A stretch of DNA of 64,000 nucleotides from Ilumatobacteraceae bacterium. GTDB lineage: Bacteria > Actinomycetota > Acidimicrobiia > Acidimicrobiales > Ilumatobacteraceae. A program made the position numbers and the translations under genes. Location of the stretch: positions 168,212 to 232,211 of the forward strand of contig JBAOHQ010000007.1 of the NCBI GenBank assembly GCA_037045185.1. Reading direction: 5' to 3'. Below, one piece after another: positions 27,555 through 55,442 of this stretch. Each line of letters begins with the position of its first letter. Position 1 is the first letter of the stretch. The notes under the pieces were generated by a model, which saw nothing but the letters and a program-made list of their open reading frames with translations, did not search any database and was not told the origin of the DNA.

Positions 27555-27587
27555 GAGCGCCGGTGGCCGGCGGCGCCGGCGGGCGTT

Positions 27588-27607: not shown

Positions 27608-27665
27608 ACGGCCATCTCCCGATCTGCGTACCGTTTCGTCATGACTCGCCGGCCAGTGGTCCGCC

Positions 27666-34200: not shown

Positions 34201-34631
34201 GTTCGCCCCCGCCCAGTTCCTCGACATCGATGCCACTGCCGCCCTCGGCGGGCCGTCGTTCGAACGGTTGGCCAACGGGGTGACGCTCGGCGGTGCCGTC
34301 CCGACCGCCGGTGCCGCGCTGGCGTCGACGCTGGCCTACGAGCAGATCCTGCGTGACCCGTCGATGGGGATCGACAGCCTGACGCTCGACGACACCCACG
34401 ACCCGACCGGCGACGACCGGCTGTTGATCGGGATGTCGTTCGGTGGATCCCTGGCCGGTGGCCCCTACACGATGGCATCGGGCGACGTACCGGCGATGAC
34501 GGACATCCAGTACGCCGTGGTCGACGCCACGACCGGCGCCACCCTGGCCACCGCGACGAGCTGGAGCGCGGCGCACGCGACGCGCCGCGCCCTCCGAGGC
34601 GATCGTGCCGACGTGGGAGCTGGCCAGATGA
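31274..34631 (+). CDS. Cluster gene B: giant DUF6603-like protein (about 1118 aa); at least 2 frame breaks as sequenced
   Basis: ATG overlaps the gene A stop (TGATG). The coding path runs through tracked ORFs 31208..32662, 32343..33569 and 33554..36163. Breaks at about 32621 (VVLE|LTIADTLGV) and in the C6 run 33527-33532 (GGFHPGFKDVPPG|FPDVARLQLALTSNP). The 3' end is assumed at the ATGA junction 34628-34631 and is uncertain. Confidence 0.6.
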
Positions 34632-37426
34632 GCAGCGCACCGATCGTTGCCCCGCTGTTCATCCCATGGCTGCGAACCGGGCTGGCCAGCAGCATCACCG
34701 TCGAGGCCGTCGACGGCCTGGCGCCCGGGGAGACGGCGACGGTCACCGCCTCGGTGCGGTTGCGCAGCAGCGGACCCACCGCCGACGAGGTCGACGTGGT
34801 CCACGGGCCGCCGATCGAGCTGCTCGGTCCGGCGGCGGTCGTCGCGCTGGACGCTGCGCAGGTGGTGCGCGTCGACCCGGCGCCCGGTTCGTCGGACATG
34901 GAGACGAACCTGTTCGCCGCCGTGGAACTGGCCGGAGCCGATCTCCCGTGGCGGTTCACCCCGGCCGCGGTGGCAGCGGGGGACGACCGGCTGCAGCCGT
35001 GGCTGGTGCTGGTGGTGGTTCCCGCCCGGCCCGGCGTGGTGCTGGGCGGCGGTGACTCCGGCCGCCAGACCCTGACCGTCGACTCGCCGGACACCGAACT
35101 GGCCAACCTGGCCGACTCGTGGGCCTGGGCCCACGTGCAGGGCGACATCGATCTCGCCGATCCGTCACCGGCGGGTGTCGCCGCGGCGTACGCCGCCACG
35201 CCTGAGCGCTTCCGTGCCCGGCTGTTGTGCCCGCGCCGGCTGACACCGAACACGTCGTGGATCGCCGCCCTGGTTCCCAGCTTCGAGGCCGGCCGCGCCG
35301 CTGGGCTGGGAGTCCCACCGCGCCCCGGCCGCACCCTGGCCTGGCTGGCAGGGGACCGGGACCTGACGTTGCCCGTGTACTACTCGTGGCGCTTCAGCAC
35401 CTCGGCGGCCGGGGACTTCGAGTCGCTCGTCCGGCGGTTGACCCCGCGGGAACTCCCCCGCGGAGGTCGGCCGCCGGACCATCGACCTGTCGAGCTCCCG
35501 GAGGGGGCCTTCCCGCCGACCCGGCTGCGGCCACCACCTTCGTGGGTGCGCTGGTCTCCCCGCAGCGTCCACCCCGGGAGCCACCCAACGCTGGTCTGCG
35601 CCGGATCGAGGCCGAGCTTCCCGGGGTTGCTCAACGCCACGATCACCGCCGGCGTGACGACCGTGCCCTACGAGTGGAGCACCGCTGATCCCGTGGTCGG
35701 ACCGCACCGCTACGTGGCCACTCAGGCGGCCGAGTCGGTCGTGCCGGCGGTGGGAGACGAGCCGGTGTGGTTCGGTGAGCTCAACGTCCGAGCCGCACCA
35801 CCGTGCCGGCGCCGGGTTGGGGGCGCGGCATCGTCCGCCAGGACCAGGAGGCCCTGCTCGCCGCTGCGTGGACGCAGTGCCAGTCACTGCGGCCGGTCAA
35901 CGACCTGCTGCGCACGGCCCGCGTGGCCTGGGGAGGCCGCCGCGCCGCTGGCCACCCGGGTGAGCGCGCGCTGGCCGACGAGGACCTGGTGCAGCTGGCG
36001 GCACCCGCTGCCGACCGGCTGCGCCTGGCCGGGGGGACCCTGCGCCAGACCAGTGGCTTGCTGGGCGTGCCGGGTGGGCTGCTGTCGGGCGCGTTCCGGC
36101 GGATCTGCGCCAGCACCCCCAGCCTGGTGGCCAGGAGAGCGACGGGGGAGAGGCGAGTCCTGACAGCGTCGGTCACCGCGCAGTGCCTGGCCGACCCGCC
36201 GGCGTTCGTCTCCTGGACCACCTCCCTGGACGTCTCCGGCGCCGACGTCTACCAGCCGGCCACCACCCAGGCGCCGGACCTGGCGGTCGGTGGCGTTCAT
36301 CGGCCGACGACCGGCGTCCGCCGCCAGGTGGCGCGCCCGACCCGGCCCGAGGTCGCCGCCCGGGTTTCGACCAGCGGTCCGATCGGCGGCGGTCCCATCG
36401 GCGGCGGCCCCGTGGTGGTCGGGATCCCGACGTCGACGGTTCCGCTGGCCACCCAGGTTCGTGCGGCGCTGGATCCGCAGGCCACCGTCGTCGCCATGGT
36501 GGAGACGCGCATCACCGGCCTGGATCCGGCACGGGCACATCCCGTACCGCAGCGGCTGACGGCCGCGCCACGGTTCTCCACACCGATGTACGCCCGCCTG
36601 GCGCGCCTCGACCCCGAGTACGTCCTCCCCGGCGTCAGCGACATCCCGGCGGACACGGTGGGGGTTCTGGCGATCAACGACGCGTTCGTCGAGGCGTACC
36701 TGGCCGGGCTGAACGACGAGATCGGCCGCGAGTTCCTGTGGCGTGAGTACCCGACGCCGCTCGACGCCACGTGGTTCGACCGCTTCTGGGACACCGTGGA
36801 CGGTTCGGCCGACATCACCGAGATCGCCTCGTGGACGCGTGGTTCGCGCCTCGGCCGTCACCGACCGCACGGCGCCCCGGCAACCGGCCTGGTCCTGCTG
36901 GTCACCGGGACCCTGCTGCGCCGCTACCCCGACACCAAGATCACCCTGGTGGAGGCGACCTGGACCGCGGAGGGCCGGCGTGAGGATCGCACGGCCGGCG
37001 CCGATGTCCGCCTGCCCACGTTCACCGGCGCCTTGGGCGCCGGGGTCCGCTTCTTCGGCTTCGACATCGAGATCGACCGTGCTCGTCGGCTCGGCGGAAC
37101 GCAGCGAACACCCCGGGTACTTCTTCGCCTTCGAGGAGCAGCCCGATGAACCGCGGTTCGGCCTCGACCAGCCGGCCAGGCCCCAGCGTGGAACGATCCC
37201 GGGCTCGTGGAGCGAGCTGTCCTGGGCCCACCTGGTCCCGACGCGCACCGGCGAGGTCCCGACGTTCGTCGACCTGGCCGCGGCGACCACCCTGACCGGT
37301 GTCAGCCGCAGCGGGCACGGGGGACGCGATCGGTGGGCCGACAACGCAGCGGCGATGGCCAGGATCACCCTGCAGACCCCGGTGCGGATGCTGGTCCACG
37401 CCGACTCGATGCTGGCGGAGGGTTGA
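34628..37426 (+). CDS. Cluster gene C: large uncharacterised protein (about 930 aa); about 6 frame breaks as sequenced
   Basis: Starts MSSAPIVAPLFIPWLRTG. Conserved-looking blocks DLPWRFTP, QPWLVLVVV, SWAWAHVQ, RLLCPRRL and PGYFFAFEEQPDEPRFGLD. Frame changes at about 35455-59, 35503-07, 35623-26, 35789, 35819-26 and 37078. Confidence 0.6.
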
Positions 37427-37427
37427 C

Positions 37428-40400
37428 ATGACCAGGACCGGACCCCGCCCCCCTGACCGCCCGGACCGGCGCGGTGAGCGCCCCGACCGCCCTGACCGCC
37501 CTGATCGCCGGCCTGATCGTCCGGACCGGCCGGACCGTCCGGACCGGCCAGACCGGCCGGCGATCCCGCCGGTGACCGGCGGCGAGTTGCCGACGGTCGA
37601 CGTCGCCCTGCTGGGCACGCCCTTCGCCGATCTCGTCGACGACTCGCCGCTGTTGCTGATGCCGGTGCGGGTCGAGACCCGCTACCGGCTCGACCGCGAT
37701 CCGGCGCAGTTGCTGGTGCGCATCTACCCCGACCAGATCCACATCCGTCACGGCATCGCCCCGCCGACCGACGCTGAGCGAGTCGCCGTCCACGAGTTCT
37801 GGAACGACGTCCACGCCGGCGGTGAGGCGGCACGCGCCCGCGGCGTGGCAGCGGTTGTCGGCGCGCACCGGCCACCGGCGCGCGGCCCAGCTGGCCCAGC
37901 GCCACCGCCCGACGCGCCTCGTCGACGGTGGGTTGGAGTTTCCGCCCCCGCAGGCGCCACCAGCAGGTGACGCCGAGACCCACGCCGCGCTGCTCCCCGG
38001 GCAATGGGTCGTGACCGGCTACGACGACGACGGGACTCGACTGTTCCGGGTCGGTAGCCGCCCGGTGAGCCGGGCCTTGCGCACCGGCCCGTCGGCCAGC
38101 GCCCCCACCTGGGACGTCGGCGGAACCGGCGTGGTGGTCGACGAGGCGCTGGCCTGGATGGTCGACTTCGATCGGGCCGTCAGCGAGGGGATGGCGGTGG
38201 CCATCACGCTCACCGGCGCCGCGGCGGGCGCGGCGACGGGCGTCGCCACGCTCGTGGTGGTCGGTGTCGACGCCACGCTGTCGCCGGACGAGGGGGCTGC
38301 GCAGTTGACCGACCTGCTGGCCGCCCACCGGGACACCGACGGTCTGGCCTTCGTTCCCCAGGGGACCCCGACCAACAGCACCGACGTCGCGGTGACCACC
38401 TGGTCGTCCACCCCCGCGGTGGCGGTGCCCGGGCTGCGTCTGGTCCCACCGGAGCTGCCCGGCCCGGTCGGCGGTCCCGGCATCCCGGGTGGTGTGCCCC
38501 CGCTGCCTGTCGTGGACAACGCCACCCGCCTGGCGCGCCTGCTCGGCCTTGGCTCGGGCACCCCGTGGCGAAGCCTGAGCGGCGGCGCCGTCGACGAGTT
38601 CGGCGACGCCCAAGCGATGCGCATCGCGCTGTTCGAGACCACCATGGGCGTGTGGGCCAGGCGCCTGCTGGAACTCGACGGGCAACCGGGCATCGAGGCC
38701 GCGGCGGTGGACGAGCTGCGCCGGTGGTTCGTCGATCACGTCGTCGGTGGGGCCCCGGTGCCCACCATCCGCGTGGCCGACCAGCCGTATGGGATCCTTC
38801 CGGTCCGCCCACCGGTCGACGACCCCGACGAGAGCACCACGCCGGGGCGCGTCGAGCACCTCGTCCGCCTCCTGCAGCCGTGGTGGGAGGCGGCAGCCGG
38901 TCGGGTGCCGTCGATCGATCACGGCGACACGGACAGCTCCACCGACGCACCGGTCGAGACCGCCCTGGCCACGATCCTGGCCACCCAGCCGCATCCGGCG
39001 AGGTGGCTGTCCCGCCGGTTGGAGGACTTCGACGACCTCGACGGCGTCGAACGCCTGCTGACCCCGCAGTCGTTCTACGAGGTGGCTCTGCAGGCGCTCA
39101 GTTCGGCGACGAACCCGGCGTTCGGGCCGCCGATCTCGTATGTCGCCGACCTCTACGCCTCGCTGAACGGCGACGGCCAGAACTACGAGATCGAGGACCA
39201 GGTGGCGCTGTGGAGCCAGATGCACCGTGAGTTCCCGGACTGGCTGGCCGACCGCGGTCTCACGGATGAGGATGGCGCGGGCCTGGGATTCATCAGCGGG
39301 GTCCGCGGCGTGGTCGAGGCCTACGAGAGCCGCCAATACCCGCTGCCGCTGCTCGACATGGCACGGCGCGGGGTCGCCCTCGGCCGGCGAGTGGTCGGCC
39401 CGGACGGTCCCACGGTGGAGACGCCACCGAACAACGAACTGATCCAGGCGATGATGTACGGGTCCGTCGTCGAGTGGGGAGCGGCCGGGCTGGTCGAGGG
39501 TGCCGGGGCGTCGGCGGCCGAGTACCTGGCGGACCTCCGCGACGCCTTCGCCCAGCGCGACGCCGCCCGCACGCCCAGGTCACGGCTGGCCGCGGAGTTC
39601 CTGGCCGCCCCGCCGCTGCTGTACCAACTCCTCTCCGCCACCGCGGCGACGGTCCCCGCCGATGCGGCCATCGAGGGCGAGTACACCGGCGCCCTCGAGC
39701 GGCTGGCGGCACTGCACCCCGACCAGCTGGCCTGGCAGCTGGGCGAGACGCTCGGTCTCGGTACGCACCGGCTGGACGCCTGGAACACCTCGCTGGCCGC
39801 CCACCGCCTCGACCACCTGCGCGACACCGGCGACGGCGGCGTGCAGATCGGGGGATACGCCGTCCTCACCGACCTGGTGCCTGCCGCAGGTGGCTCGCCG
39901 AGCCAGGGGTACGTCCACGCACCGTCGATGGCTCAGGCGGCGACCGCGGCGATGCTGCGCGCCGGGTTCCTGGCCCACGGCGACGCCGAGTCCAGCTCGG
40001 CCTACGCCATCGACCTGTCGTCGCGGCGGGTCCGTGACGCCCGCTGGCTGCTCGACGGGATCTCGTCCCGCCAGCCACTGGGCGAGCTGCTCGGCTGCCG
40101 CTTCGAACGTGAGCTGCACGACGCCGGGCAGGACCTCTTGATCCGCCCGGTGCGCCAGGCGGTGCTGGCGGCACAGGGCAGGTCACGGGCGTCGCTCGAC
40201 CGGCCCGTCGACGGCGTGGAGCTGCTCGACCTGACCCGCTCCGGCGCGGTGGTCCTCGAGCCCGGTGCCGCCGCCGCGCTCGCCGCGGTGGAGGCATCGT
40301 TCGACGCGGCGAACGACCTGGCGATCGCCGAAGGTGTCCACCAGGTGGCGGCAGGCAACTACGCCAGGGCCTCGGCGATCCTGGACACCGTTGCCACCGG

Positions 40401-41805
40401 TACGGCTCGGCCGCCGCGGCCCGAGGTGGTGGAGACACGGCGCTCCGGTTCGTCGATCGAGCACCGCCTCGTCGTCCTCCTGGCCGCCGACGCCCCGGCG
40501 GATGGGCGGTGGCCGAGCGCTCCGCGGATCGGGTGACGCCACACGTGGCGCGATGGGCCGCCGGTCTGCTGCCCGACCCGCAGGACGTCGGGTTCACCGT
40601 GGTCGACGGCGGGAAGCGCACCGGCCGGCGATTGGTCGAGCTCGGCCTCGGCGTGCTCGACGCGGTGTTCCTGGTGAGCGACGACCCGGGACAGGCCGGC
40701 GGGGCGCTGGCGACGCTGATCCGCTGCATCAGCGGCGTCCCGGTAGCGGCCACCATCGACCTCACCGACCGGGGCTCGGCGCCGTACTCGCTGGCCGAGT
40801 TCGCCGTGGCTTGTGTCGAACTGCGCCGCATCCTGGACACCTCCCGCCCCGCCGACGCTCGTGACCTGCGCCACGCCCACGACAGCGGGTGAGCCCGACA
40901 CCGATGCCGCGGCGATCACCACGGCGGTCGACTTGGCAGTCGGGGCGTTCGGCGCGGCGACCGACACGCTGGCCGCAGCGCTCATCACCGGCGACCGGAC
41001 CGCGCTCGTGGCGGCAGCGGCAGGCCTTGCCCGCTACGGGCTGGGGTGCTCCGGCGACCCCGGCGACGTGGCGGTGGCTCGGGCGCTGCTCGACCGGTCC
41101 ACGGCGACCCAGCAGCGGATCATCGAGACCACCACCGATGCCGAGCGGGTCACGGTGCTGTTCTCCCACGCGGTGCCGTTGACGCCCAGCTTCACCCTCG
41201 ATGCCGTCGTTGCCGACGCCGTCGCCGTTCCCGATCAAGCCCTGGCGGACGCGGACACCGTGGAGCGATGGTTGGACGAGATGGGCCGGGTCCGCCCGGC
41301 GGTGGGCAGGCTGACCCACGTCGGCCTGCTGGCTGACACGTTCGGGTGTACCGGGTGGCGGGCCGTCGCCGGTCAGACGCCCCGCCTCGATGGTGAGGGG
41401 TGGGCTGCGGTAGCGCGACCGGCCGACCCTGGAACCAGGTTGTCGTGCACCTACCTGGTGGCCGACACGATCCCCGGGCGCGGCAGCAGGGCGTGTGGGC
41501 TGGTCGTCGACCGCTGGGTCGAGGCGATCCCCGACCCGCTGCAGACCACCGGTGTCGCCGTGCACTTCGACGCTCCCAGCAACCAGGCGCCCCAGACGTG
41601 CCTGCTGGCGGTGCTGCCGGCGAAGGCCTCGTGGGACATCGACGTCGTCCACGACCTGGTGCTGGACACGATGGCCTGGGCGAGACGACGCGCGGTGGTG
41701 GCCGAGGATCTGGTGGTGCCAGGCCGGTCGATCCCGAGCACCTTCGTGCCCGGATCGATCGTCGCCTGGCCGGACGAGGCGGTCGCCGCGGAAGGTGGTG
41801 GCTGA
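37428..41805 (+). CDS. Cluster gene D: giant uncharacterised protein (about 1458 aa) with an N-terminal (PDR)n repeat; 3 frame breaks as sequenced
   Basis: ATG 1 nt after the gene C stop. Blocks LLLMPVRVETRY and LLVRIYPDQIHI. The coding path runs through tracked ORFs 37299..37970, 37822..40536, 40509..40892 and 40813..41805, with breaks at about 37839, 40513 and 40869. Confidence 0.6.
37452..37556 (+). repeat. Imperfect 9-nt coding tandem repeat (CCN GAY CGN = Pro-Asp-Arg, 11 units)
   Basis: PPDRPDRRGERPDRPDRPDRRPDRPDRPDRPDRPDRP, read directly from the nucleotide repeat CCGGACCGG/CCTGACCGC. Confidence 0.85.
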
Positions 41806-43478
41806 TGGCCTGGTGGACTCGCCTCGAGGGCATGGGCCGCAGCGACGCGCTCACGCCCGGGTTGGAGGCCCGCGTCGCCGACCCGTTGTGGATGCTTGCT
41901 CGCCAATGGCAGATCGGCGAGCTTCGTGGTGACGACGCCGCCCGACCTGTCGGCATGACGGTCTCGACTCGGTCGGCGTCGATCAGCGAGGTCAGCGGAC
42001 CGGCCGGGTCGCTGGCCGCCGACGCCGCCGTGCCGATGGAGTACGTGGTCGAGCGCCGACCGCGCCCCTCGTCGGGTCACGCCGCGACGCACGACGCAGT
42101 GCGCCTCGGCCACCGCTTGGTGCGGATGCTGGCCAACGCCGGCTTCGCCGGGGCGCGCCCGGCGCTGGCCGAGGCGTTCCCCAGCGCGCCTCCCGACGAC
42201 GGCATGACCCTCACCGGGCTCGCCGCGGCGACGGAGGCGCTGCTCGTCAGGCTGGGCATCGACGGCGCAGCAGTGCTCGATGCGCCGGACACGGCGGTGC
42301 GCGCCGTCCTGGCCGCCGCGGTGGCGCGGGCGGATCTGCCCGCGGCGATGACGGTGGTGGGCGAATGGCGGGCGTGGTGCCTGTCGATCGGCGCCGGGCG
42401 GACCCTGGAGGCGTGGGACGACGAGCAGCTGGCGTACCGGTTCAGCGCCTCCACGGAGCCGCGCCGTGAGGGCATCACCCTGCGTGCGCCATCCCACGAC
42501 GGTGGGCTGCTCGACTGGTTCAGCTTCGACCTGCGCGGCGCGGCCGGTCAGCGGGAGCCCTCCGGTCCCGTCACCACGGTGTCGATGCTGCCCACCCCGG
42601 TGCGCTTCCGCGGGCAACCCGCCGAGCGATGGTGGGAGTTCGAGGACGCGGCAACCAACCTCGCCGACATCGACGCCGGCCCGGCGGATCTGGCCAGGAT
42701 GCTCGTGGCCGAGTACGCCGTCGCCTACTCGGCGGACTGGTTCGTGCTCCCGGTGCGCGTCCCCGTCGGCACGCTGACCGAGGTGGTCGAGATGCGCGTC
42801 GTCGACAACTTCGGTGACGTGACAGAGGTTCGCTCGGTTGCCGACGTCGATCGCCGAGCCGGCGGGGAGCGGGTATGGCGGATGTTCGAGCTCACTGGCG
42901 ATGAGGTCTCCGGCGCCCACCGGTCGCCGTGGTTGTTCGTGCCGTCGACGGTGCACGGCGACCTCACGGGCGACGCGCTGGAGCAGGTGGGCCTGGTGCG
43001 CGACGAGGGCGCCAATCTGGTCTGGGCGGTCGAGCGCCTCGTGGAAGGCCCGGCCGGGCGGGCCCTCAACCGCCGGCTGCTGGCCGGCGCGCCGTCCCCG
43101 GCGACCGTGGAGCTGGGCCACGTGGAGCAGTCCTCGGCGTGGACGTATCACCTGGAGTCCGGGGTGCCACCCGCGTTCTGGATCCCGTTCGTGCCCGAAC
43201 GGATCAGCGAGGGCAGCGCCGAGGTCCGCCTTCGCCGGGCGCGCCTGTCACAGTGGTCCCTCGTGGCCGATGCCGGGCCGCGCAGCGAGCTGCTCGACCC
43301 GAGCGGGCCACGCTGGATCCGTGAGGAGCAGGTGCCGGCCAGCGGTGTGCAGGTCGAGCGGCGCTGGCGTTATGCGCGTGGTCACGATGGCACCGGCCAC
43401 CTGTGGCAGCAGTTCAGCGTCACCCCGGCCAGCGGCCAGCGCTCCAGCGGCCTGCGCTGGGACCTGCTGGACGGCTGA
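41805..43478 (+). CDS. Cluster gene E: uncharacterised protein (557 aa)
   Basis: Intact ORF. ATG overlaps the gene D stop (TGATG). Blocks DPLWMLARQWQIGELRGDD and ERWWEFEDAATNLADIDAGPADLARMLVAEYAVAYSADWFVLPV. Confidence 0.75.
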   Translation: MAWWTRLEGMGRSDALTPGLEARVADPLWMLARQWQIGELRGDDAARPVGMTVSTRSASISEVSGPAGSLAADAAVPMEYVVERRPRPSSGHAATHDAVRLGHRLVRMLANAGFAGARPALAEAFPSAPPDDGMTLTGLAAATEALLVRLGIDGAAVLDAPDTAVRAVLAAAVARADLPAAMTVVGEWRAWCLSIGAGRTLEAWDDEQLAYRFSASTEPRREGITLRAPSHDGGLLDWFSFDLRGAAGQREPSGPVTTVSMLPTPVRFRGQPAERWWEFEDAATNLADIDAGPADLARMLVAEYAVAYSADWFVLPVRVPVGTLTEVVEMRVVDNFGDVTEVRSVADVDRRAGGERVWRMFELTGDEVSGAHRSPWLFVPSTVHGDLTGDALEQVGLVRDEGANLVWAVERLVEGPAGRALNRRLLAGAPSPATVELGHVEQSSAWTYHLESGVPPAFWIPFVPERISEGSAEVRLRRARLSQWSLVADAGPRSELLDPSGPRWIREEQVPASGVQVERRWRYARGHDGTGHLWQQFSVTPASGQRSSGLRWDLLDG

Positions 43479-43481: not shown

Positions 43482-44000
43482 TCAGCCTGTCAGCGCCGCG
43501 ACGATCTGGTCGAAGACCTGATCGGCGTAGGCGCGCATCTCCTCGTCGGTGCGGTCCTGCACCGGATGCGCGGTGAACACCCTGGCCACACCCGGCATGC
43601 CGAGGGACGCGGCCTGGGCCTCGGCCCCGTCGACGAAGGGCGCCGAGGCGACGCACACCGTCGGCACGCCGCGGGACTCCAGATCAACGGTGTCGTGCAC
43701 ACTGCACGACGTGCAACTGCCTCAATCGGCGAGCGCCTCGATCACCATCGTGCAGGTCGTGGCGATCTCATGGCGAAGATCGACCGGGGCCGGCTTGGTG
43801 AAGGTGGGCTTGCGGAACCGGCGGGTGGTGACGCCCAGCTGCCCGAGCCGTTCCTCGATCCGGTCGAGGAAGACGTCACCACGCAGCTTGGAGATGTCCA
43901 GCAGGCCGACGACCTGGCCGTCCAGCGTGGCCGGGCGGGGCGTGATCGAACGCTCGGCGGGGCGGCGCTCGCCGGTGGGATCCAAGACGATGCGGCTCAT
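43482..44000 (-). CDS. UGSC family selenoprotein (in-frame UGA = selenocysteine)
   Basis: Tracked ORFs 43722..44000 and 43482..43700 are in the same frame, separated only by TGA (43722-43724). The read-through sequence is EALAD-U-GSCTSCSVHDTVDL, which is the family-defining UGSC motif. Confidence 0.8.
43692..43710 (-). promoter_or_regulatory. SECIS-like hairpin 11 nt downstream of the UGA codon
   Basis: mRNA GUCGUGCA-GUG-UGCACGAC, a perfect 8-bp stem with a G/U-containing apical loop. Confidence 0.6.
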
Positions 44001-44022
44001 GGCAACTCCTTCGCGTCGGGTC

Positions 44023-45459
44023 TCATGATGTCACGACCGTGGTGACGGGTTCGGATCCCATCGCGCCGCCGGCCCAGCCGCCGATGATGGCCGAGAACAG
44101 CCCGGCGTCGCCCCCGGCATGGACGATGAGCAGCCCGTCGGGCCGGAACTTCGGCAGCGACGGGGCCTCGGCGAGGAACTCGGGCATGCCGTCGGCGATG
44201 CCGTCGACGCCGGGCATCCACGCCGCGCCCGGCTTGGCGCAACGGGCGATCAGTTCGCCGTGCGCACGCGCCCGGTCCCAACCAGCATCGGCGAAGATCC
44301 TGGCGTGCTCGGGCCCGACCACGAGCATGGCGTCGAACGCCATCGCCATCTTCGGTGTGTGCACATGCAACAGCTCGCTGGCGAAGACGGCGATCAGCTG
44401 CTCGGGCGTGCGCGCCTTCTGATCCACGACGCAGCGCGGTCCCTCGCCGGCGAACACCGTCACTGCGTTGGCGCCCGGGTCGACGCCGCGGCTGACCGCC
44501 AGCGAGCTGAACGGTGAGTCGTGCTCCCGCTCGGCGAAGCACAAGCCGATCTTGCCGGGGTTGCCGTGGGTGGCCCGGTCGATGCCGCCGACGCCCGGCC
44601 GCCCGCCACCCACGTTGCGGACCACCAGCTGCACGGCCCGCCCGATGGTCATGTTCGCCCGGGTCCCCTGGCCCAGCGCGTTCGACGCGCCGTTCAGACC
44701 GATGGCCGCAGTGCCCGGCCCGTTGCACACCACGACCGGACCGACCGGCATGGTGGTGCACAGGACGCCGTGCATGTTGAACTGCTCGTTGCAGACGGCC
44801 TCCACGGCGGCCAGCACCCACGGGAAGTACTCGGGCAGGCAGCCGGCCATCACCGCGTTGATCGCCACCTTCTCCACCGTCACCGCCACGAGGTCGGGGG
44901 CCACGACGGCCACCACCTCGCCCGGGTCACGGGTGGTGCCGGTGAGCATCCGCAGCACCCGCTCGGGTGTGGGCGGGACCACGGGCAGGCCGTCGCTGAT
45001 CCCGCGGGCGAACATCGCCTCGAACTCGTCCTCGGCGTCGGCGATCTCGATCCGCCGGGAGCGCAGCACGTCGCCGCTGAACCTGGCGCGCAACTCGTCG
45101 GCCAGATCGGGGTCCACGCTGAGCGACCCGCACCCGGGCCGCATCACCGGCAGGTCTCCGCCGAGGTCGGCGATCCCGGTGATCCGCTGCCAGTCGGCGC
45201 GCAGCCAGCCCTCGGTGCGCTCCACCTCGGCGCCGTCGACGACGCGCAGCAACGTGGGGACCGTCTCGATGTCGTAGTGCCAGCTCACCGCGAGATCCTC
45301 GTCGTGGATCGCCGTCACCGTGGCCGGGAACGCCGGATCGTCCTGGGTGTAGACCGTCGCGGCGAACCGGGCCAGCAGCGGCTCGACCATCTGGCAGGTG
45401 GCGCACTCCCGCTTGACGACGACGACCAGCCCGTCGGCCAGCGCCGGCCGGCCGCTCAT
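44023..45459 (-). CDS. Thioredoxin-like (CxxC) domain fused to an uncharacterised conserved domain
   Basis: Start at MSGRPALADGLVVVVKRECATCQ (CATC redox motif), then GISDGLPVVPPTPERVLRML. The stop of the upstream hydrolase gene overlaps this start (ATGA). The tracked 787-aa ORF N-terminus is an out-of-frame overlap. Confidence 0.65.
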   Translation of the reverse strand: MSGRPALADGLVVVVKRECATCQMVEPLLARFAATVYTQDDPAFPATVTAIHDEDLAVSWHYDIETVPTLLRVVDGAEVERTEGWLRADWQRITGIADLGGDLPVMRPGCGSLSVDPDLADELRARFSGDVLRSRRIEIADAEDEFEAMFARGISDGLPVVPPTPERVLRMLTGTTRDPGEVVAVVAPDLVAVTVEKVAINAVMAGCLPEYFPWVLAAVEAVCNEQFNMHGVLCTTMPVGPVVVCNGPGTAAIGLNGASNALGQGTRANMTIGRAVQLVVRNVGGGRPGVGGIDRATHGNPGKIGLCFAEREHDSPFSSLAVSRGVDPGANAVTVFAGEGPRCVVDQKARTPEQLIAVFASELLHVHTPKMAMAFDAMLVVGPEHARIFADAGWDRARAHGELIARCAKPGAAWMPGVDGIADGMPEFLAEAPSLPKFRPDGLLIVHAGGDAGLFSAIIGGWAGGAMGSEPVTTVVTS

Positions 45460-46445: not shown

Positions 46446-47285
46446 GTGATCGGACTCACGTTCTACGGCGTTCGTGGCTCGACACCGTGCCACGGCGAGC
46501 ACACGGCGCGCTATGGCGGCAACACGTCGTGCATCCACGTCGACATTCCCGGAGAACCGCCCCTGCTGTTCGACCTCGGCACGGGCCTGCGATACTTCGG
46601 GCTGCGCCAACCCAATGACGGCTCGTTCCGCGGCAACTGCCTGCTGACCCACCTCCACTGGGACCACACACAGGGGCTGCCGTTCTTCACCCCGCTGCTC
46701 CGCCTCGGCGCCGAACTCGACGTGTACGGGCCGGTGCAGGAGGACGGTCGCTCGGTCGAGGACGTGTTCAGCGAGACCGTCACCCCGCCCATGTTCCCCA
46801 TCCCGATCACCGCGCTGCCCGGCACCGTGCGCTTTCACGACACCGAGGACGCCGACTTCTTCCTCGGCCAGGTTCGCGTCCGCAGCCGGATCGTCCCCCA
46901 CGTCGGCCCCACCCTCGGCTACCGGATCTCGTGGCAGGGACGCACGATTGCCTACCTGCCCGATCACCAGCAGCCCTACGACGGATCGCTGGGCATCACC
47001 CCGGGAGCGTTGGAGCTGGCCTCCGGCGCGGACCTGTTGATCCACGACTCGCAGTACACACCCGAGGAGTTCGCCGTGAAGAACACCTGGGGGCACTGCA
47101 CGGTGGAGTTCGCCCTGGAGGTGGCCATCCGGGCCAAGGTGTCCAACCTGGTGCTCTTCCATCACGACCCCACCCGCCACGACGAGGCGATGGACGCCCA
47201 GCATCACGCAACCGTCCGTGAGGCGGCCCGCCACGGAATCACCGTGATCACGGCCTCAGAAGGCCTGCACCTGACGATTCCTTGA
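46446..47285 (+). CDS. MBL-fold metallo-hydrolase
   Basis: LLTHLHWDHTQGLPFF (HxHxDH) motif. 279 aa. Confidence 0.85.
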   Translation: MIGLTFYGVRGSTPCHGEHTARYGGNTSCIHVDIPGEPPLLFDLGTGLRYFGLRQPNDGSFRGNCLLTHLHWDHTQGLPFFTPLLRLGAELDVYGPVQEDGRSVEDVFSETVTPPMFPIPITALPGTVRFHDTEDADFFLGQVRVRSRIVPHVGPTLGYRISWQGRTIAYLPDHQQPYDGSLGITPGALELASGADLLIHDSQYTPEEFAVKNTWGHCTVEFALEVAIRAKVSNLVLFHHDPTRHDEAMDAQHHATVREAARHGITVITASEGLHLTIP

Positions 47286-47693: not shown

Positions 47694-49709
47694 CTACGCC
47701 AGCGTGGTCAGCAGGAACGTGAGCACCCGGGCCTCGTCACGCCAGGCGTCGTAGCGCCCGCTCGGGCCGCCGTGCCCTGCCCCCATCTCGCAGCGGAACA
47801 GCAGCGGCGGGTGGTTCGTGCGGATGGCTCGCAGCTTGGCCACCCATTTGGCCGGCTCGTGGTAACCCACCCGCGGATCGTTGAGCCCGGCGGTCACGTA
47901 CATCGCCGGGTAGTCGTGGCCGGTGGTGTTGTCGTAGGGCGAGTAGCCGGCGATGTAGCTGGCGAAGGGCTCGTGGCGCGGGTCGCCCCATTCCTCCCAC
48001 TCCGTGACGGTCAGCGGCAGGCTCGGATCGCTCATCGTCGTCACCACGTCGACGAAGGGGACCTCGGCCACCGCCGCAGCCCACAGATCCGGCCGCATCG
48101 TGACGCAGGCGCCGACGAGCAGGCCGCCCGCCGACCCACCGCGCACCGCCAGCTTGCCGGGCCGCGCCGTGCCCCGCTGGACGAGGTGCTCGGTGGCGGC
48201 AAGGGTGTCGGTGAAGGTGTTGCGCTTGTTCAGCAGCTTGCCGTCGAGGTACCACTGGCGGCCCAGCTCCCCGCCACCGCGCGGGTGGACGATGGCGAAC
48301 ACCATGCCCCGATCCAGCAGTGACAGCCGGGCCACGCTGTACCACGGGGCCAGGCTGGACTCGTAGCTGCCGTACCCGTACAGCACGGTGGGCGCCGGCA
48401 GCGAGGTGCGTACGTGGCGGACGAGGTCCACCGGGACCCGGACCCCGTCAGAGGTCGTCGCCCACGTGCGCTCGGCCACGTACGCCGAGCGGTCGACCCC
48501 CGGGACCGGGGTCTGCTTCAGCAGCGTTCGTTCGTCGGTGCGCAGATCGTGTTCGTACACCGACGCCGGCGTGGTCATCGACTGGTAGCTGTAGCGCAGC
48601 ACGTGGGTGTCGTACTCGGGGTTCACGTCCACCTCGACGTCGTGCGGTTCTCCGCCGAGGTCGAGCACCCGGTCGGTCCCATCACGGCCGACGATCCGCA
48701 ACTGCGGTTGAGCGTGGCGCCACTCGTGGATGACGAGGTGATCGGCGAAGGGCTCGGCTGCGGCGATGCGCCGCCCGGGCTCACCGGGGACCAGCGGCGT
48801 CCACGCGCCCGGATCGTCGAGCGGAGCGCTCATCACGGCGAAGTCCGGTTCGTCGGCATTGGTCAACACGACGAAGCGATCGCCCCAATGGTCCACCGAG
48901 TACTCCACGCCGTCCTGGCGGGCGCGCACCAGCGTCGGTTGCGTCGTTGGCTCGCCGGCGTGGAGCACGTGGCACTCGCTGGAGGTCTTGCTGTGACTGT
49001 CGATCAGGATCCAGTCACCACTGCGGGACAGGTCAAGGCCGAGGAAGAACCGCTCGTCGGGTTCCTCCAGGACCAGCTCGTCGTCCGACTGCGGGGTGCC
49101 CAGGCGATGGCGCCACACGCGGTACGGGCGCTGCTGCTCGTCGTCGGTCACGTAGAACAGCCAGCGGTCGTCACTGGACCATGCCGTGCCGGCCCAGGTG
49201 GTGCCGCGCAACTCGTCGGCGAGGTCGGCGCCGGTGGTCAGGTCACGGACGCGCAACGTGTAGTGCTCACTGCCGTCGGTGTCGCTGCTCCAGGCCAGCA
49301 GGTCCTGGGCGTGGCTCGGGTCGAACGCGGCGACGGCGAAGTAGTCGTGGCCCGCGGCCTCGACGTTCTCGTCCAGCAGGACGGACTCGTCGGCGCTGTC
49401 CCGTGACCGGCCGCGGCAGTGGATCGCGTAGCTGGCCCCCTCCTCGGTCCTGGTGAGGTACCACCACCCGTCACGCCGGGCGGGTGGGGACTGGTCGGTC
49501 TCCTGGACGCGGGAGCGGATCTCCTCGAAGACCTCGGTCACCAGGTTGCCGTGGGTGTCGAGCCAGGCATCGGCGTAGCGGTTCTCGGCCTCCAGGTAGG
49601 CAATGGTGTCGGGGTCGTCGCGGTCACGGAGCCAGGCCCACGGGTCATCCACCTCGCCGTCCGGGCGATGCCAGACGTGGGGGACTTGCTTGACGGTTGG
49701 CTCGAGCAT
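47694..49709 (-). CDS. ptrB: Oligopeptidase B / S9A prolyl oligopeptidase family serine protease
   Basis: Start at MLEPTVKQVP. DPWAWLRDRDDPDTIAYLEAENRY N-terminus. Catalytic GGSAGGLLVG. C-terminal GHGG. Confidence 0.85.
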   Translation of the reverse strand: MLEPTVKQVPHVWHRPDGEVDDPWAWLRDRDDPDTIAYLEAENRYADAWLDTHGNLVTEVFEEIRSRVQETDQSPPARRDGWWYLTRTEEGASYAIHCRGRSRDSADESVLLDENVEAAGHDYFAVAAFDPSHAQDLLAWSSDTDGSEHYTLRVRDLTTGADLADELRGTTWAGTAWSSDDRWLFYVTDDEQQRPYRVWRHRLGTPQSDDELVLEEPDERFFLGLDLSRSGDWILIDSHSKTSSECHVLHAGEPTTQPTLVRARQDGVEYSVDHWGDRFVVLTNADEPDFAVMSAPLDDPGAWTPLVPGEPGRRIAAAEPFADHLVIHEWRHAQPQLRIVGRDGTDRVLDLGGEPHDVEVDVNPEYDTHVLRYSYQSMTTPASVYEHDLRTDERTLLKQTPVPGVDRSAYVAERTWATTSDGVRVPVDLVRHVRTSLPAPTVLYGYGSYESSLAPWYSVARLSLLDRGMVFAIVHPRGGGELGRQWYLDGKLLNKRNTFTDTLAATEHLVQRGTARPGKLAVRGGSAGGLLVGACVTMRPDLWAAAVAEVPFVDVVTTMSDPSLPLTVTEWEEWGDPRHEPFASYIAGYSPYDNTTGHDYPAMYVTAGLNDPRVGYHEPAKWVAKLRAIRTNHPPLLFRCEMGAGHGGPSGRYDAWRDEARVLTFLLTTLA

Positions 49710-49741
49710 CGTGTCAGGGTACGACGGTAGGGTGCCCCCCG

Positions 49742-50011
49742 ATGCGCGTATGGATCGACCAGGACCTGTGCACCGGCGACGGGTTGTGCATCGACCATGC
49801 TCCCGACGTGTTCGTCCAACTGGAGGACGGGATCGCCTACGTCGCCCAGGACGGCGTGGCGCTGAACGACCCGGGCGGGTCACGGTCGCTGGCCACGGTG
49901 GCGGCGCGCAGGTACCAGGCGGTCGTCGATGCGGCGATGGCCTGCCCCGGCGAGTGCATCTTCATCGAGATGGACCTCCCTGCCGCCGTGCCCCGCTCAC
50001 CAGCAGCCTGA
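49742..50011 (+). CDS. Small ferredoxin (single Fe-S cluster type)
   Basis: MRVWIDQDLCTGDGLCIDHAPDVF ... ACPGECI pattern. Confidence 0.75.
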   Translation: MRVWIDQDLCTGDGLCIDHAPDVFVQLEDGIAYVAQDGVALNDPGGSRSLATVAARRYQAVVDAAMACPGECIFIEMDLPAAVPRSPAA

Positions 50012-50044
50012 GCCGTCCCTGTCGCGTTGGCGCAGCGAATTGTT

Positions 50045-50064
50045 ACTATGGCGGTAGTGGAAAT
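50045..50064 (+). promoter_or_regulatory. suf-associated 20-nt motif, copy upstream of sufB
   Basis: ACTATGGCGGTAGTGGAAAT, 13 nt upstream of the sufB GTG. Related to reverse-complement copies at 55410-55429 and 62266-62285. Confidence 0.45.
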
Positions 50065-50076
50065 TCGGGAGGCTGC

Positions 50077-52353
50077 GTGAGCTTTGATCTGGACCTCAGC
50101 AAGTACAACCTCGGCTGGAGCGACACCGATGTCGAGTACGCGTTCGCGCCGGCCAAGGGCCTGAACAACGGCGTCGTCGACCAGATCAGCTGGTGGAAGG
50201 GCGAGCCGGCGTGGATGAGCAAGTTCCGCCAGCGGTCGCTGCAGCTGTTCGAGCGCAAGCCGATGGCGCCGTGGTTCGCCGTGAACATGCCCGACATCGA
50301 CTTCCAGGACATCTACTACTACCTGAAGCCGGCCACCGAGCAGGTCGACGAGTGGGACGATCTGCCCGAGCAGATGAAGGCCACCTACGAAAAGCTCGGC
50401 ATCCCCGAGGCGGAGCGCAAGTACCTGGCCGGCGTCACCGCGCAGTACGAGTCCGAGGTGGTCTTCCACCGCAACCGTGAGGACCTCGAGCAGCAGGGGA
50501 TCCTGTTCTGCGACATGGACACCGCCCTGCGTGAGTACCCCGACGTCGTCAAGCAGTACTTCGGCACCGTCATCCCGCCGGGCGACAACAAGTTCGCCGC
50601 GCTGAACTCGGCGGTGTGGTCCGGTGGCTCGTTCATCTACGTGCCGCCGGGTGTGGAGTGCGAGATGCCCCTGCAGGCCTACTTCCGGATCAACTCGGAG
50701 AACGCCGGGCAGTTCGAGCGAACCCTGATCATCGCCGACGAGGGCGCCAAGGTGCACTACATCGAGGGCTGCTCGGCCCCGGTGTACACCAACGACTCAC
50801 TCCACTCGGCCGTGGTCGAGATCGTCGTCAAGCCTCACGCCCGGGTCACCTACACCACCATCCAGAACTGGTCGCCGAACGTGTACAACCTGGTCACCAA
50901 ACGGGCCAGGGTGGAAGAGGCCGGCCACATGGAATGGATCGACGGCAACATCGGCTGCCTGGCCGAGGGCGCCACGGTCACCACACCCAGCGGGGTGAAG
51001 CCCATCGAGCTGGTGCTCCCGGGCGACGAGGTCCTCTCCTTCGACGAGGGGTCGGGCGAGCTGGTGTTCCGACGGGTCACCGCCAAGCGGTTCTCCGGCG
51101 TCCAGCCGGTGCGCACCGTCACGGTGGGCTGGCGGTCGTTGACCGTGACCGACAACCATCCCTTCCTGTCCTACGTCGACGACGCCCAGGCGCAGGCGGC
51201 CCGCCGCCTCGGCTACGTGCGCGCCGATCACCTCGAGGTGGCGCTGGTGCCGCGCACCAGCATCGACTACGGCCACCCGTTCAAGTTGGAGTACCCGCTC
51301 GACACCACCGAGGTCACCACCGACGATCTGATGCGGCTGTTCGGGCGGTACCTCGGTGACGGCTCGCCGGAGGACGATCGAGTCATCGGGCTGCACCTCG
51401 GCGCGCTGACCACGCGCATCCCCGACTGGGTCTACGACACCCCCGAGTCGCAGCGGCTGGAGTTCGTCGCCGGGCTGCTCGACCGTGCCGGGACCGCGTT
51501 GACCGGCTGCCCTGGGCTGTCGTTCACGTCGGCGAGCACCGAACTGGTCGCCGATCTCGCTCGCCTGCTGGACACCCTGGGAGTGCTCGGCCAGCGTGCC
51601 GACGCGCAGCGCATCGAGTTCCCGGCCGATCCGCGCCTGGTCGCCCGCCTGTCCCCGGCGCTGCAGGGCCGCGTCGCCGAGCCGCCGCCCGGGCGCTCCA
51701 GCCAGACGCGCCCCGACACGCTCGAGGCCCGGCCGGTCAGCGTCAGCGATCACATCGGCCACCGGCGCACGTGGGACATCGAGGTCGAGGGGACGGCGAA
51801 CTTCGTGTCCCAGGGCTTCGTCGTGCACAACTCCAAGCTGACGATGAAGTACCCGTCGGTCTATCTGGTTGGCCCCAAGGCAACCGGCGAGGTGCTGTCG
51901 GTGGCCTACGCCGGGCCCGGGCAGCACCAAGACGCCGGGGCCAAGATGGTGCACGCCGCGCCGGAGACCACCTCGAAGATCGTGTCCAAGTCGATCAGCA
52001 AGGACGGCGGGATCACCACCTACCGCGGCCTCGTCCGCGTCGACGAGGGCGCGACGGGGTGCAAGAGCCACGTCCAGTGCGATGCGCTGATCCTCGACGA
52101 GCACAGCGAGAGCCGCACCCTGCCGTACATGGAGGTGGGTGAGCGCGACGCCCAGATCGGCCACGAGGCCACCGTGTCCAAGATCGCCGACGAGCAGCTC
52201 TTCTACCTGATGAGCCGCGGCCTGTCCCAGGAGCAGGCCATGGGCATGGTGGTCAACGGGTTCATCGAGCCGATCACCCGCACGCTGCCGATGGAGTACG
52301 CGGTGGAGTGGAGCCGGCTGATCGAGCTGCAGATGGAAGGCTCAGTCGGCTGA
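50077..52353 (+). CDS. sufB: Fe-S cluster assembly protein SufB, interrupted by an intein
   Basis: GTG start after GGGAGG. SufB blocks throughout, for example FAALNSAVWSGGSFIYVPPGV and KISKDGGITTYRGLV. The extein sequence is continuous when 50956-51831 is removed (GNIG|SKLTMKYPS). Confidence 0.9.
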   Translation: MSFDLDLSKYNLGWSDTDVEYAFAPAKGLNNGVVDQISWWKGEPAWMSKFRQRSLQLFERKPMAPWFAVNMPDIDFQDIYYYLKPATEQVDEWDDLPEQMKATYEKLGIPEAERKYLAGVTAQYESEVVFHRNREDLEQQGILFCDMDTALREYPDVVKQYFGTVIPPGDNKFAALNSAVWSGGSFIYVPPGVECEMPLQAYFRINSENAGQFERTLIIADEGAKVHYIEGCSAPVYTNDSLHSAVVEIVVKPHARVTYTTIQNWSPNVYNLVTKRARVEEAGHMEWIDGNIGCLAEGATVTTPSGVKPIELVLPGDEVLSFDEGSGELVFRRVTAKRFSGVQPVRTVTVGWRSLTVTDNHPFLSYVDDAQAQAARRLGYVRADHLEVALVPRTSIDYGHPFKLEYPLDTTEVTTDDLMRLFGRYLGDGSPEDDRVIGLHLGALTTRIPDWVYDTPESQRLEFVAGLLDRAGTALTGCPGLSFTSASTELVADLARLLDTLGVLGQRADAQRIEFPADPRLVARLSPALQGRVAEPPPGRSSQTRPDTLEARPVSVSDHIGHRRTWDIEVEGTANFVSQGFVVHNSKLTMKYPSVYLVGPKATGEVLSVAYAGPGQHQDAGAKMVHAAPETTSKIVSKSISKDGGITTYRGLVRVDEGATGCKSHVQCDALILDEHSESRTLPYMEVGERDAQIGHEATVSKIADEQLFYLMSRGLSQEQAMGMVVNGFIEPITRTLPMEYAVEWSRLIELQMEGSVG
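50956..51831 (+). mobile_element. SufB intein (292 aa) with a LAGLIDADG-type endonuclease remnant
   Basis: Begins CLAEGATV (Cys1). Block B TVTDNHPF. LAGLIDADG-like LFGRYLGDGS and FVAGLLDRAGT. Ends FVVHN, followed by Ser+1. Confidence 0.85.
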
Positions 52354-52355
52354 CG

Positions 52356-53039
52356 GTGGGCTCGGCACCGCTGTCCCGAACGGCGGCCCAGGGTGGTGCT
52401 CCCGGCTGGCGGTATCTGGTCGGTCGCCTGCACCTGTCCGTGCGCTTCGCCGGGTTTGCCGAGGCGCTGGCCTTCGTCGCCCGTGTCGGCGCGCTGGCCG
52501 ACGAGCACGATCACCACCCCGAGATCGACGTCCGCTTCAGCAGGGTCCACCTGGCCATGTCGAGCCACGATGTCGGTGGGATCACGAGCCGGGATCTGCG
52601 CCTGGCCGAGGCCGTGAGCGCAGTGGTCGACGAGACCGGCGGGGTGGTCGACCACGGGCGGTTGACCGCGGCGGAGATCGCCATCGACACCCTCGACTTC
52701 CGTCGGATCAAGCCGTTCTGGAGGGCCATCCTCGGCTACGTCGACGACGGCGAGGAGGCGATCCGTGACCCCGACCTGATCGGGCCCGCCGTGTGGTTCC
52801 AGCAGCTCGATCGGCCGAACCCGATCCGCAACCGCCTGCACCTCGACGTGATCGTCGCCCACGACGAGGCCGCACACCGGATCGACGCTGCGTTGGCCGC
52901 CGGCGGCAGGCTGGTCTCCGACGCCAGTGCGCCGCGGTTCTGGATCCTGGCCGACGCCGACGGCAACGAGGCGTGCGTGTGCACCTGGCTGGGCCGCGAC
53001 GAGCTCGACGCCGCACGGGCCAGCGAGCCCACGACCTAG
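52356..53039 (+). CDS. Pterin-4a-carbinolamine dehydratase domain fused to a VOC/glyoxalase-like domain
   Basis: ADEHDHHPEIDVRFSRVHL (PCD signature), then FWRAILGY...WFQQLDRPNPIRNRLHLDV (glyoxalase-like). GTG start 2 nt after the sufB stop. Confidence 0.65.
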   Translation: MGSAPLSRTAAQGGAPGWRYLVGRLHLSVRFAGFAEALAFVARVGALADEHDHHPEIDVRFSRVHLAMSSHDVGGITSRDLRLAEAVSAVVDETGGVVDHGRLTAAEIAIDTLDFRRIKPFWRAILGYVDDGEEAIRDPDLIGPAVWFQQLDRPNPIRNRLHLDVIVAHDEAAHRIDAALAAGGRLVSDASAPRFWILADADGNEACVCTWLGRDELDAARASEPTT

Positions 53040-53048
53040 CCTGGCGCG

Positions 53049-54086
53049 GTGTCCGGGTCGGTGATCGTCGCTGATGACCGCACCGGTGCGCTGGAGACCG
53101 CCGGGGCCCTCGCCCAGCGTGACGGGTCGATCGTGCCCGTCCGGTTCCGGACGCTTCCCGACCCTGTCGACGCCCAGGTGGTCGTGGATCTGGGCAGTCG
53201 CCACCTGCCGCCGACCTCGGCCGCCGAGGCCGTCGCCGGGCTCGGCCTGGGACGCCACGCCGGGTGGGTGGGGCACAAGGTGGACTCGCTGTTGCGGGGC
53301 AACGTCGCCGCGGAGATCTCGGGCTTGCGCGCCTCGACCGGGCGACGCGTGCTGCTGGTCCCGGCATCGCCCGGATTGGGTCGTACCTGCGTCGGTGGTG
53401 TTGTCCGCGCCGATGGCATCCCCGTCGCCGACCTGGCCGACGCTCGCTCGCCGGCAACCACCAGCCGCCCGTCCGAGTTGCTCGGCGCCGCCGAGGTCGA
53501 CGCGCCGCGGTTGAGCAGGTGGCTCGGCGGCAGCGATCCGGTTGCCGTCTGTGACGCCGAGACCGAGGACGACCTGATCGGGATCGCCGCGGTGATGGCC
53601 GGCCACCCCCACGTGATCATCGCCGGCCCCGCCGCCGTCATCGCCGCCACCTGCCCCCCGTGGTCACCGAACATCTCGCCCACCGAGAGATTCGGTGACC
53701 ACGTGATGGGTGGGAGGGTGGTCGTGGTGGTGGGGAGCGTGCATCCCAGCGCGCTGGCCCAGGCCGACGCGCTGGAGCGAGCCACGACCGCTCGGGTGTT
53801 CCGCACCGATCTGGGTGCCGGGTCCACCCCCGACGAGGTGCTGGCCGACCTGGCTGCCCGGGCGGCGACGGCCCTGGCCGAGGCCCGGACCATCGTGATC
53901 GTCGGTGGGGACACCGCGGCGGCGGTGCTGGGTGACGCAACGGTGGAGGTGTGTGGTCTCGTGGCGACGGGCATGCCCTGGTTCCGCGCCTCCCGGTTCC
54001 ACGGGGCGACGGTGATCACCAAACCAGGCAGCTTCGGCGGTCCGAACCTGCTGGTGGACGTCCTCTCGGGCAGGATTGGGCGATGA
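53049..54086 (+). CDS. Four-carbon acid sugar kinase family protein (DUF1537)
   Basis: N-terminus VIVADDRTGALETAGAL. ATGA overlap with the downstream pdxA-like gene, which is the usual partner. Confidence 0.7.
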   Translation: MSGSVIVADDRTGALETAGALAQRDGSIVPVRFRTLPDPVDAQVVVDLGSRHLPPTSAAEAVAGLGLGRHAGWVGHKVDSLLRGNVAAEISGLRASTGRRVLLVPASPGLGRTCVGGVVRADGIPVADLADARSPATTSRPSELLGAAEVDAPRLSRWLGGSDPVAVCDAETEDDLIGIAAVMAGHPHVIIAGPAAVIAATCPPWSPNISPTERFGDHVMGGRVVVVVGSVHPSALAQADALERATTARVFRTDLGAGSTPDEVLADLAARAATALAEARTIVIVGGDTAAAVLGDATVEVCGLVATGMPWFRASRFHGATVITKPGSFGGPNLLVDVLSGRIGR

Positions 54087-55024: not shown

Positions 55025-55039
55025 TGGCACACTTGACCG

Positions 55040-55390: not shown

Positions 55391-55409
55391 AGCGGCCGCG
55401 GACCAGGGC

Positions 55410-55429
55410 ATTTCTCCTATCCGCGTAGT
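55410..55429 (-). promoter_or_regulatory. suf-associated 20-nt motif, copy upstream of sufD (inverted orientation)
   Basis: Plus strand ATTTCTCCTATCCGCGTAGT, reverse complement ACTACGCGGATAGGAGAAAT. 19/20 identical to the copy at 62266-62285. Confidence 0.45.
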
Positions 55430-55442
55430 AGAATTCGGTACC

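Follow-up and report, generated by a model that had tools for sequence, protein, structure and literature searches.

A UGA codon within a UGSC-family gene of an Ilumatobacteraceae bacterium is very probably decoded as selenocysteine

Introduction

Does a TGA in the middle of an otherwise open frame end a protein, or is it decoded as selenocysteine (Sec)? The question is raised by a locus in a stretch of 64,000 nt from an Ilumatobacteraceae bacterium (GCA_037045185.1, contig JBAOHQ010000007.1, positions 168,212 to 232,211), which we refer to as the window. A preliminary description of the window proposed that two neighboring ORFs on its minus strand are in fact a single selenoprotein gene of the UGSC family, with a TGA inside the frame and a SECIS-like hairpin just behind it.

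The family itself has been described since at least 2008, and the window gene is a canonical, routine member of it. In the GOS metagenomes the "UGSC-containing protein" ranked with the most abundant selenoprotein families; 255 of its sequences had Sec and 21 had Cys, and aquatic samples of non-marine origin had it most often (Zhang & Gladyshev 2008, PMC2398784). In a 2026 review UGSC still appears under NF041046, and what these selenoproteins do is called largely uncharacterised (PMC13188914). Here we examined the reading frame, the relatives, the RNA hairpin, the predicted fold and the genomic neighbors of the window gene.

Results

A 172-codon frame with a single interruption

The ORFs 44000..43722 (92 aa, beginning with ATG) and 43700..43482 (72 aa, beginning with GTG) lie on the minus strand in a common frame, and coordinates and translation agree with the earlier statement that a TGA is all that separates them. 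The full frame, 44000..43482, starts with the ATG at 44000-43998 and ends with a terminal TGA at 43484-43482; its sole interruption is the TGA at 43724-43722, after which 79 sense codons follow up to the terminal stop. Straight translation across the TGA reads ...TTCTMVIEALAD*GSCTSCSVHDTVDLESRG..., and read-through yields a product of 172 aa, ...VIEALAD-U-GSCTSCSVHDTVDLESRG..., in which the peptide across the UGA is ...IEALAD-U-GSCTSCSVHDTVDLESR and the motif is D-U-G-S-C-T-S-C. The best explanation of the data presented below is that the frame is very probably one gene, encoding a 172-residue UGSC selenoprotein whose UGA is decoded as Sec. The coordinates of the locus are collected in Table 1. 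The Shine-Dalgarno sequence of the gene falls inside the 22-nt gap behind the stop of the upstream gene.

Table 1. Features of the UGSC locus, in window coordinates
Feature	Position	Strand	Details and basis
Complete UGSC-family selenoprotein CDS	43482..44000	-	172 codons including Sec; NF041046 and PF24696 matches
In-frame UGA read as Sec, U of the UGSC motif (very probable)	43722..43724	-	TGA in 81/81 sequences; Cys in homologs
SECIS hairpin (putative)	43692..43710	-	Codon entropy, pair table, energy, published criteria
Shine-Dalgarno AAGGAG	44006..44011	-	5 nt 5' of the ATG; from the sequence directly
nbrA (label used here), thioredoxin-fusion gene	44023..45459	-	478 aa; synteny, fusions

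Standard gene callers were expected to split such a gene, and public assemblies of the same organism indeed call a 92-aa protein together with a second one of 61 or 72 aa. The downstream ORF is intact, and called as UGSC-family, in the same-organism contigs read (L084-L094), and an identical 92-aa product occurs in 229 indexed blocks of the public collection.

A plus-strand ORF (gene E of the preliminary description) converges on the UGSC gene. Its stop ends at 43478, and 3 nt separate the two stops, as had been pointed out. A terminator scan at these convergent gene ends (43478/43482) found none. The ORF closes a run of very large plus-strand genes (window ~24684-43478) that includes a LuxR-type regulator and, according to the gene calls of same-organism contigs, a DUF6603 protein; most genes of the run are without a Pfam match. 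The block looks lineage-specific, since tblastn with its last gene gave no match in any of 80 related loci.

Both halves match one family with Sec and Cys members

For searches with family models we replaced U by C in the window protein. The full read-through product matches the NCBIfam equivalog model NF041046, "UGSC family (seleno)protein"; the score is 165.4 bits (cut-off 125), and the alignment runs through the TGA from model position 2 to position 147 of 147. Taken singly, the N-terminal ORF covers positions 2-68 and the C-terminal ORF positions 77-147, each with a score below the cut-off. The match to Pfam PF24696 (UGSC) reaches 171.2 bits against a cut-off of 25. These results bear out the proposed family identity, with its U-G-S-C signature, as well as the proposal that both halves belong to one family. 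The full-length domain and the U-G-S-C column are common to the window protein and to UGSC as defined in PMC2398784, NF041046 and PF24696, and nothing essential differs.

A search of 1.84 billion cluster representatives returned 1404 UGSC family clusters, of which the best 150 were inspected. Full-length proteins with Cys at the U site account for 75 of these 150, and thus the alignment suggested in the preliminary description does recover Cys homologs. The Cys forms carry C-G-x-C, with Cys also at +3, in 69 cases and C-G-T-S in 6. A further 36 of the best 150 end exactly at ...ALAD; these are Sec forms cut by gene callers. The truncated and the Cys homologs make up the classic Sec/Cys pair. 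Sec forms dominate among the close relatives of the window protein, as they do in the GOS UGSC family (255 Sec versus 21 Cys, PMC2398784). The record titles of the relatives include lake, river and groundwater samples, which fits the abundance of UGSC in non-marine aquatic samples (PMC2398784).

The Cys at +6 (U-x-x-C-x-x-C) is specific to the subfamily of the window protein; in most relatives of the Cys type the position is W, Y or A. In a few database translations (P0001, P0002, P0005 and P0020) the U site is occupied by W, R or G; each comes from a single short metagenomic contig. In another contig (L096, position 1229, protein P0004) a Cys-type gene, with TGT at the site, still carries the identical hairpin; the gene probably changed from Sec to Cys recently or is a sequence variant.

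Conservation of the UGA and occurrence of the Sec machinery

A scan of one genome per species gave 80 related loci, nearly all from MAGs titled as uncultured Actinomycetota/Acidimicrobiia and many of them labelled Ilumatobacteraceae, with protein identities of 64-72%. TGA stands at the U column in 81/81 sequences (the window and the 80 related loci). In 80/80 related loci an open frame of 79-87 codons follows the TGA, with no downstream stops or frameshifts. Homologs therefore do not end at this position, neither the 80 loci nor the 75 full-length Cys forms among the best 150 clusters.

We searched the window for selA, selB and selD (tblastn with E. coli SelA, SelB and SelD) and for tRNA-Sec (ARAGORN). 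None was found in the 64 kb, nor was a tRNA of any kind. A metagenome contig that is 99.7% identical and reaches 6.3 kb past the window's right end (L102) likewise has no sel genes or tRNA-Sec in the added 6.3 kb, and the same two programs found none in the same-organism contigs L084-L094 and L097-L101. The absence says little, because about 70 kb is a small fraction of the genome. In six related MAGs (L019, L035, L048, L071, L072 and L076), selD, selA, selB and a tRNA-Sec with anticodon TCA lie directly upstream of nbrA and the UGSC gene. The Sec trait is present in the clade. The sel block occupies about 3.6-8.5 kb in each of the six loci, with selD on the opposite strand, and stands where the window has its hydrolase, lactamase and MauE genes.

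Just one further candidate selenoprotein is encoded nearby, an FdsA-type formate dehydrogenase alpha subunit at 62307-64000 on the minus strand, which runs over the right edge of the window and continues in L102 (1-6260). Its Sec/Cys position lies ~230 nt outside the window and is of the Cys form (CARV-C-HSP, L102).

Could the UGSC gene be a pseudogene, or a relic left after loss of the Sec machinery, from which only the N-terminal 92 residues are made, if anything? The lack of Sec machinery in about 70 kb of the organism's DNA and its Cys-type formate dehydrogenase would agree with this, the former with little weight given the fraction of the genome covered. Against it stand the TGA, the frame and the hairpin, all kept in 80/80 related species-level genomes, the intact downstream UGSC ORF in L084-L094 and the recurrence of the exact 92-aa product in 229 blocks of the public collection. 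We consider a relic quite improbable and favor a functional selenoprotein gene.

One more TGA of the window, at 47283-47285 on the plus strand, has coding signal on both sides, with the genes in the same frame; it is the only other one. It lies at the junction of a beta-lactamase-fold gene and a MauE gene. We rejected it as a second selenoprotein because the two genes belong to different families and are called separately in same-organism contigs.

Codon substitution patterns indicate translation through the UGA

Among the related UGSC loci, mean pairwise divergence at codon positions one, two and three amounts to 0.225/0.156/0.513 in the part ahead of the UGA, and to 0.229/0.161/0.509 in the part past the hairpin. 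The patterns are alike, and therefore both halves are under the same protein-coding selection. Codons +1..+3 (Gly-Ser-Cys) lie ahead of any possible restart codon and show synonymous variation only (AGT/AGC/TCG and TGC/TGT), which rules out termination with a restart at the GTG.

These data bear on the alternative that the UGA is a true stop and that two separate polypeptides, of 92 aa and of 72 aa from a restart at GTG 43700, are made and then assemble. Such a split would account for the fact that the gene callers of public assemblies yield exactly these two ORFs, and a GTG does stand 8 codons after the TGA. However, the G-S-C-T-S-C-S codons between TGA and GTG are invariant or changed only synonymously in the 81 sequences, indicating that this stretch is translated, and the two parts never drift out of frame. 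The Cys-type homologs, moreover, are single chains, and the split would cut what is modeled as one compact domain at its putative active site. The GTG itself belongs to the loop and 3' arm of the hairpin, and no ribosome-binding site was noted 5' of it. Two polypeptides are thus highly improbable, and a single chain read through the UGA is the preferred reading.

UGA is not generally reassigned, since TGA terminates 36 of the 43 predicted genes in the window. The codons that flank the UGA (GAT at 43725-43727 and GGC at 43719-43721, minus strand) each keep their synonymous site in 80 of the 81 sequences, a sign that Sec insertion may need a particular sequence context in addition to the hairpin.

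A conserved hairpin with SECIS geometry follows the UGA

The hairpin GUCGUGCA-GUG-UGCACGAC that had been proposed 11 nt after the TGA is present. Its 5' arm (43710-43703, GUCGUGCA) and 3' arm (43699-43692, UGCACGAC) form a perfect 8-bp stem closed by a GUG loop (43702-43700), with an energy of -10.9 kcal/mol on its own; the spacer from the TGA is GGCAGTTGCAC, and the loop begins 19 nt after the UGA. Published ranges for bacterial SECIS elements are an upper stem of 4-16 bp, a loop of 3-9 nt beginning with G-U, a UGA-to-loop distance of 16-37 nt and an MFE of <= -7.5 kcal/mol (PMC13188914). With 8 bp, 3 nt (GUG), 19 nt and -10.9 kcal/mol the window hairpin lies within these ranges on 4/4 counts. 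Together with the constraint on its codons at the RNA level, this upholds the claim that form and position are those of a SECIS. Across all 81 sequences the energy ranges from -8.2 to -11.2 kcal/mol.

The E. coli fdhF type of element and the bSECISearch consensus are likewise stem-loops within the coding region just after the UGA; compared with them, the window hairpin is without the bulged U and has a very small loop. Its 11-nt spacer equals the spacing reported for the minimal E. coli element.

The constraint is apparent from codon usage. Conditional on the amino acid, codon entropy in the alignment of 81 genes averages 0.04 bits at codons +4..+10 and 1.22 bits elsewhere. These codons, ACG TCG TGC AGT GTG CAC GAC, are exactly the hairpin, and all six zero-entropy columns of the gene sit within them. 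At the level of base pairs, 6/8 pairs are invariant in the 81 sequences, and the loop is GUG in 81/81. At pair 2, 77 sequences have U-A and the other 4 an A-A mismatch. Pair 4 reads G-C in 77, G-U in 3 (by CAC>CAT) and A-U in 1, the last being a compensatory double change in L072 (TCG>ACA and CAC>CAT). Covariation rests on this single double change because the stem shows very little sequence variation.

Perfect 8-bp hairpins with loops of 3-8 nt number 31 in the window versus ~21 in shuffles, and the fold of the 66-nt region has a z-score of +0.54, so the single sequence is no more stable than shuffles. The UGSC hairpin is nonetheless the only 8-bp hairpin of the window, on both strands, that starts 9-13 nt after a TGA. 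That it is more than chance is indicated by comparative conservation, not by the single-sequence fold. A distant Cys-type homolog (L095, with TGT) is without the hairpin; the Cys-type gene of L096, which does carry it, is a closer relative.

An alternative hairpin overlaps it at 43697-43720 (minus strand), in which GCAGYUGYAC pairs with GUGCAGUGUGC and the spacer is used. In some relatives the alternative is about as stable as the SECIS hairpin, or stabler, and its 5' arm shows only synonymous changes, C/U opposite G, so that pairing is kept. Its energy is more variable (-5.9 to -11.3 kcal/mol), its loop is only 11 nt from the UGA, and it leaves the constraint on CAC and GAC unexplained. We favor the hairpin 43710-43692. 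Rfam is without a usable bacterial SECIS model for scoring it; a scan of the whole window at the gathering threshold and of 43600-43800 at E <= 10 returned two snoRNA models (E 4.8 and 8.6), which are noise.

Reading of the UGA by a standard tRNA (for example a near-cognate Trp or Cys tRNA), with the hairpin as a generic read-through stimulator or DNA motif, draws on the W, R or G of the four translations mentioned above and on the stem being a DNA palindrome that contains GTGCAC, but it is exceedingly improbable in view of the classic pairing of Sec with Cys at the site in homologs, the SECIS geometry with G-U at the first two loop positions and 19-nt spacing, the sel genes and tRNA-Sec that adjoin the gene in six relatives, the absence of the hairpin from the Cys-type gene of L095 and the origin of the deviating calls in single short metagenomic contigs.

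The UGSC domain is predicted to have a flavodoxin-like fold

We made an AlphaFold2 model on the Cys homolog P0004, which is 61% identical to the window protein. In the model (pLDDT 91.5) five beta-alpha units are packed into one compact alpha/beta domain. Strand 3 and the N-terminus of helix 3 flank the U site; of the two Cys residues that follow, the one at +3 falls in the first turn of helix 3 and the one at +6 in the next turn. Foldseek against the PDB with this model returned lumazine synthase, the FprA flavodoxin domain, the MttC Rossmann domain and DJ-1/YhbO, at TM <= 0.49, and no thioredoxin-fold proteins among the top 50. A PDB sequence search with the UGSC protein gave no match. The fold is thus predicted to be flavodoxin-like, not thioredoxin-like. 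In 2008 a thioredoxin-like fold was guessed for the UGSC-containing protein (PMC2398784); the guess is not supported, since neither the model nor the Foldseek search shows a thioredoxin fold.

Like the thioredoxin-fold UxxC/CxxU selenoproteins (Trx-, Prx- and SelW-like), UGSC places UxxC at a helix N-terminus after a beta strand and has Cys homologs; it differs from them in its predicted topology of five beta-alpha units. In the model, the geometry of U-G-S-C-T-S-C would fit a redox-active selenol/thiol pair.

We presumed a possible UxxCxxC similarity of UGSC to GrdB/PrdB. The Pfam model GRDB (PF07355) gave no match at E <= 10 for four UGSC proteins, and the relationship was rejected as unsupported; the scan of neighboring genes also revealed no grd or prd genes. 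The UxxC motif is common to UGSC and the GrdB/PrdB reductase selenoproteins (PMC9312934).

A conserved thioredoxin-fusion gene precedes UGSC

The gene immediately upstream, which we label nbrA, ends 22 nt before the UGSC start; its start and the stop of the alpha/beta-hydrolase gene that precedes it overlap by 4 nt. The N-terminus of its product is a thioredoxin domain with CATC, and the CxxC is invariant. The remaining core of ~335 aa has many invariant Cys and Gly residues, and searches of Pfam, NCBIfam and PDB sequences gave no match for it. The protein collection contains more than 8000 nbrA homologs, with identities of about 70% within Acidimicrobiia.

The gene stands immediately upstream of UGSC in 77/80 related loci. 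In L095 it is upstream of the distant Cys-type UGSC gene, with a 4-nt overlap, and the other neighbors differ. In other organisms, 8 representative proteins have the nbrA core fused to an N-terminal Cys-type UGSC domain; nbrA residues 143-416 align with residues 210-482 of one such fusion (P0418) with 39% identity (E 6e-55). As synteny persists while the flanks change, and as fusions exist, a functional partnership of UGSC and nbrA is likely on genomic grounds. An "Unknown_1" domain was reported fused to UGSC in 2008 (PMC2398784), and the nbrA core is probably that domain.

Two further readings were rejected. P0363 (651 aa), considered as an nbrA-UGSC fusion, is instead a frameshift-scrambled read-through. 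A relationship of the nbrA core to class I fumarate hydratase had a Foldseek E of 5e-4 but a TM of 0.2, and hhalign against E. coli FumA gave a probability of 0.2%.

Discussion

The mechanism that we propose is the following. UGA 43724-43722 would be decoded as Sec in translation of the 172-residue protein, with the hairpin 11 nt past it acting as a bacterial SECIS. By analogy with the general bacterial mechanism, the hairpin would bring SelB, loaded with Sec-tRNA(Sec), to the ribosome. In the finished protein the selenol/thiol pair of U-G-S-C-T-S-C may cycle through a selenenylsulfide. The UGSC gene is the last in an operon with nbrA.

For annotation this means one 172-residue selenoprotein where public assemblies of the same organism record two hypothetical ORFs. 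The value of the result is mainly corrective, and knowledge of Sec decoding is unchanged by it. Beyond the known family it adds the nbrA partner and the predicted flavodoxin-like fold, both of them modest additions. The conserved operon and the natural fusions of UGSC with the nbrA core point to a specific, assayable partner for the UGSC family.

The fusions in other organisms argue that UGSC is most likely a redox partner or electron-delivery module of the nbrA core, a role that motif, fold and synteny also suggest. Whether UGSC and nbrA together make an undescribed two-part selenium-dependent redox enzyme is, in our estimate, an evenly balanced question. In such an enzyme the nbrA core may be served either by a Sec-type UGSC and the fused thioredoxin or by a fused Cys-type UGSC. 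Given that the pair lies beside the sel genes in some Acidimicrobiia, UGSC may be a principal client of the Sec-insertion machinery there.

A connection with Fe-S clusters may be hinted at by P0483 (657 aa), a three-part fusion of a weakly matching NifU-like N-terminus (E 0.008), a Cys-type UGSC domain and the nbrA core. The window also holds two sets of suf Fe-S assembly genes: one on the minus strand at 59789-62266 (SufC 61478-62266, SufS 60249-61481 and SufU 59789-60238), and a second, of SufB/D-like genes, on the plus strand at ~49600-56600.
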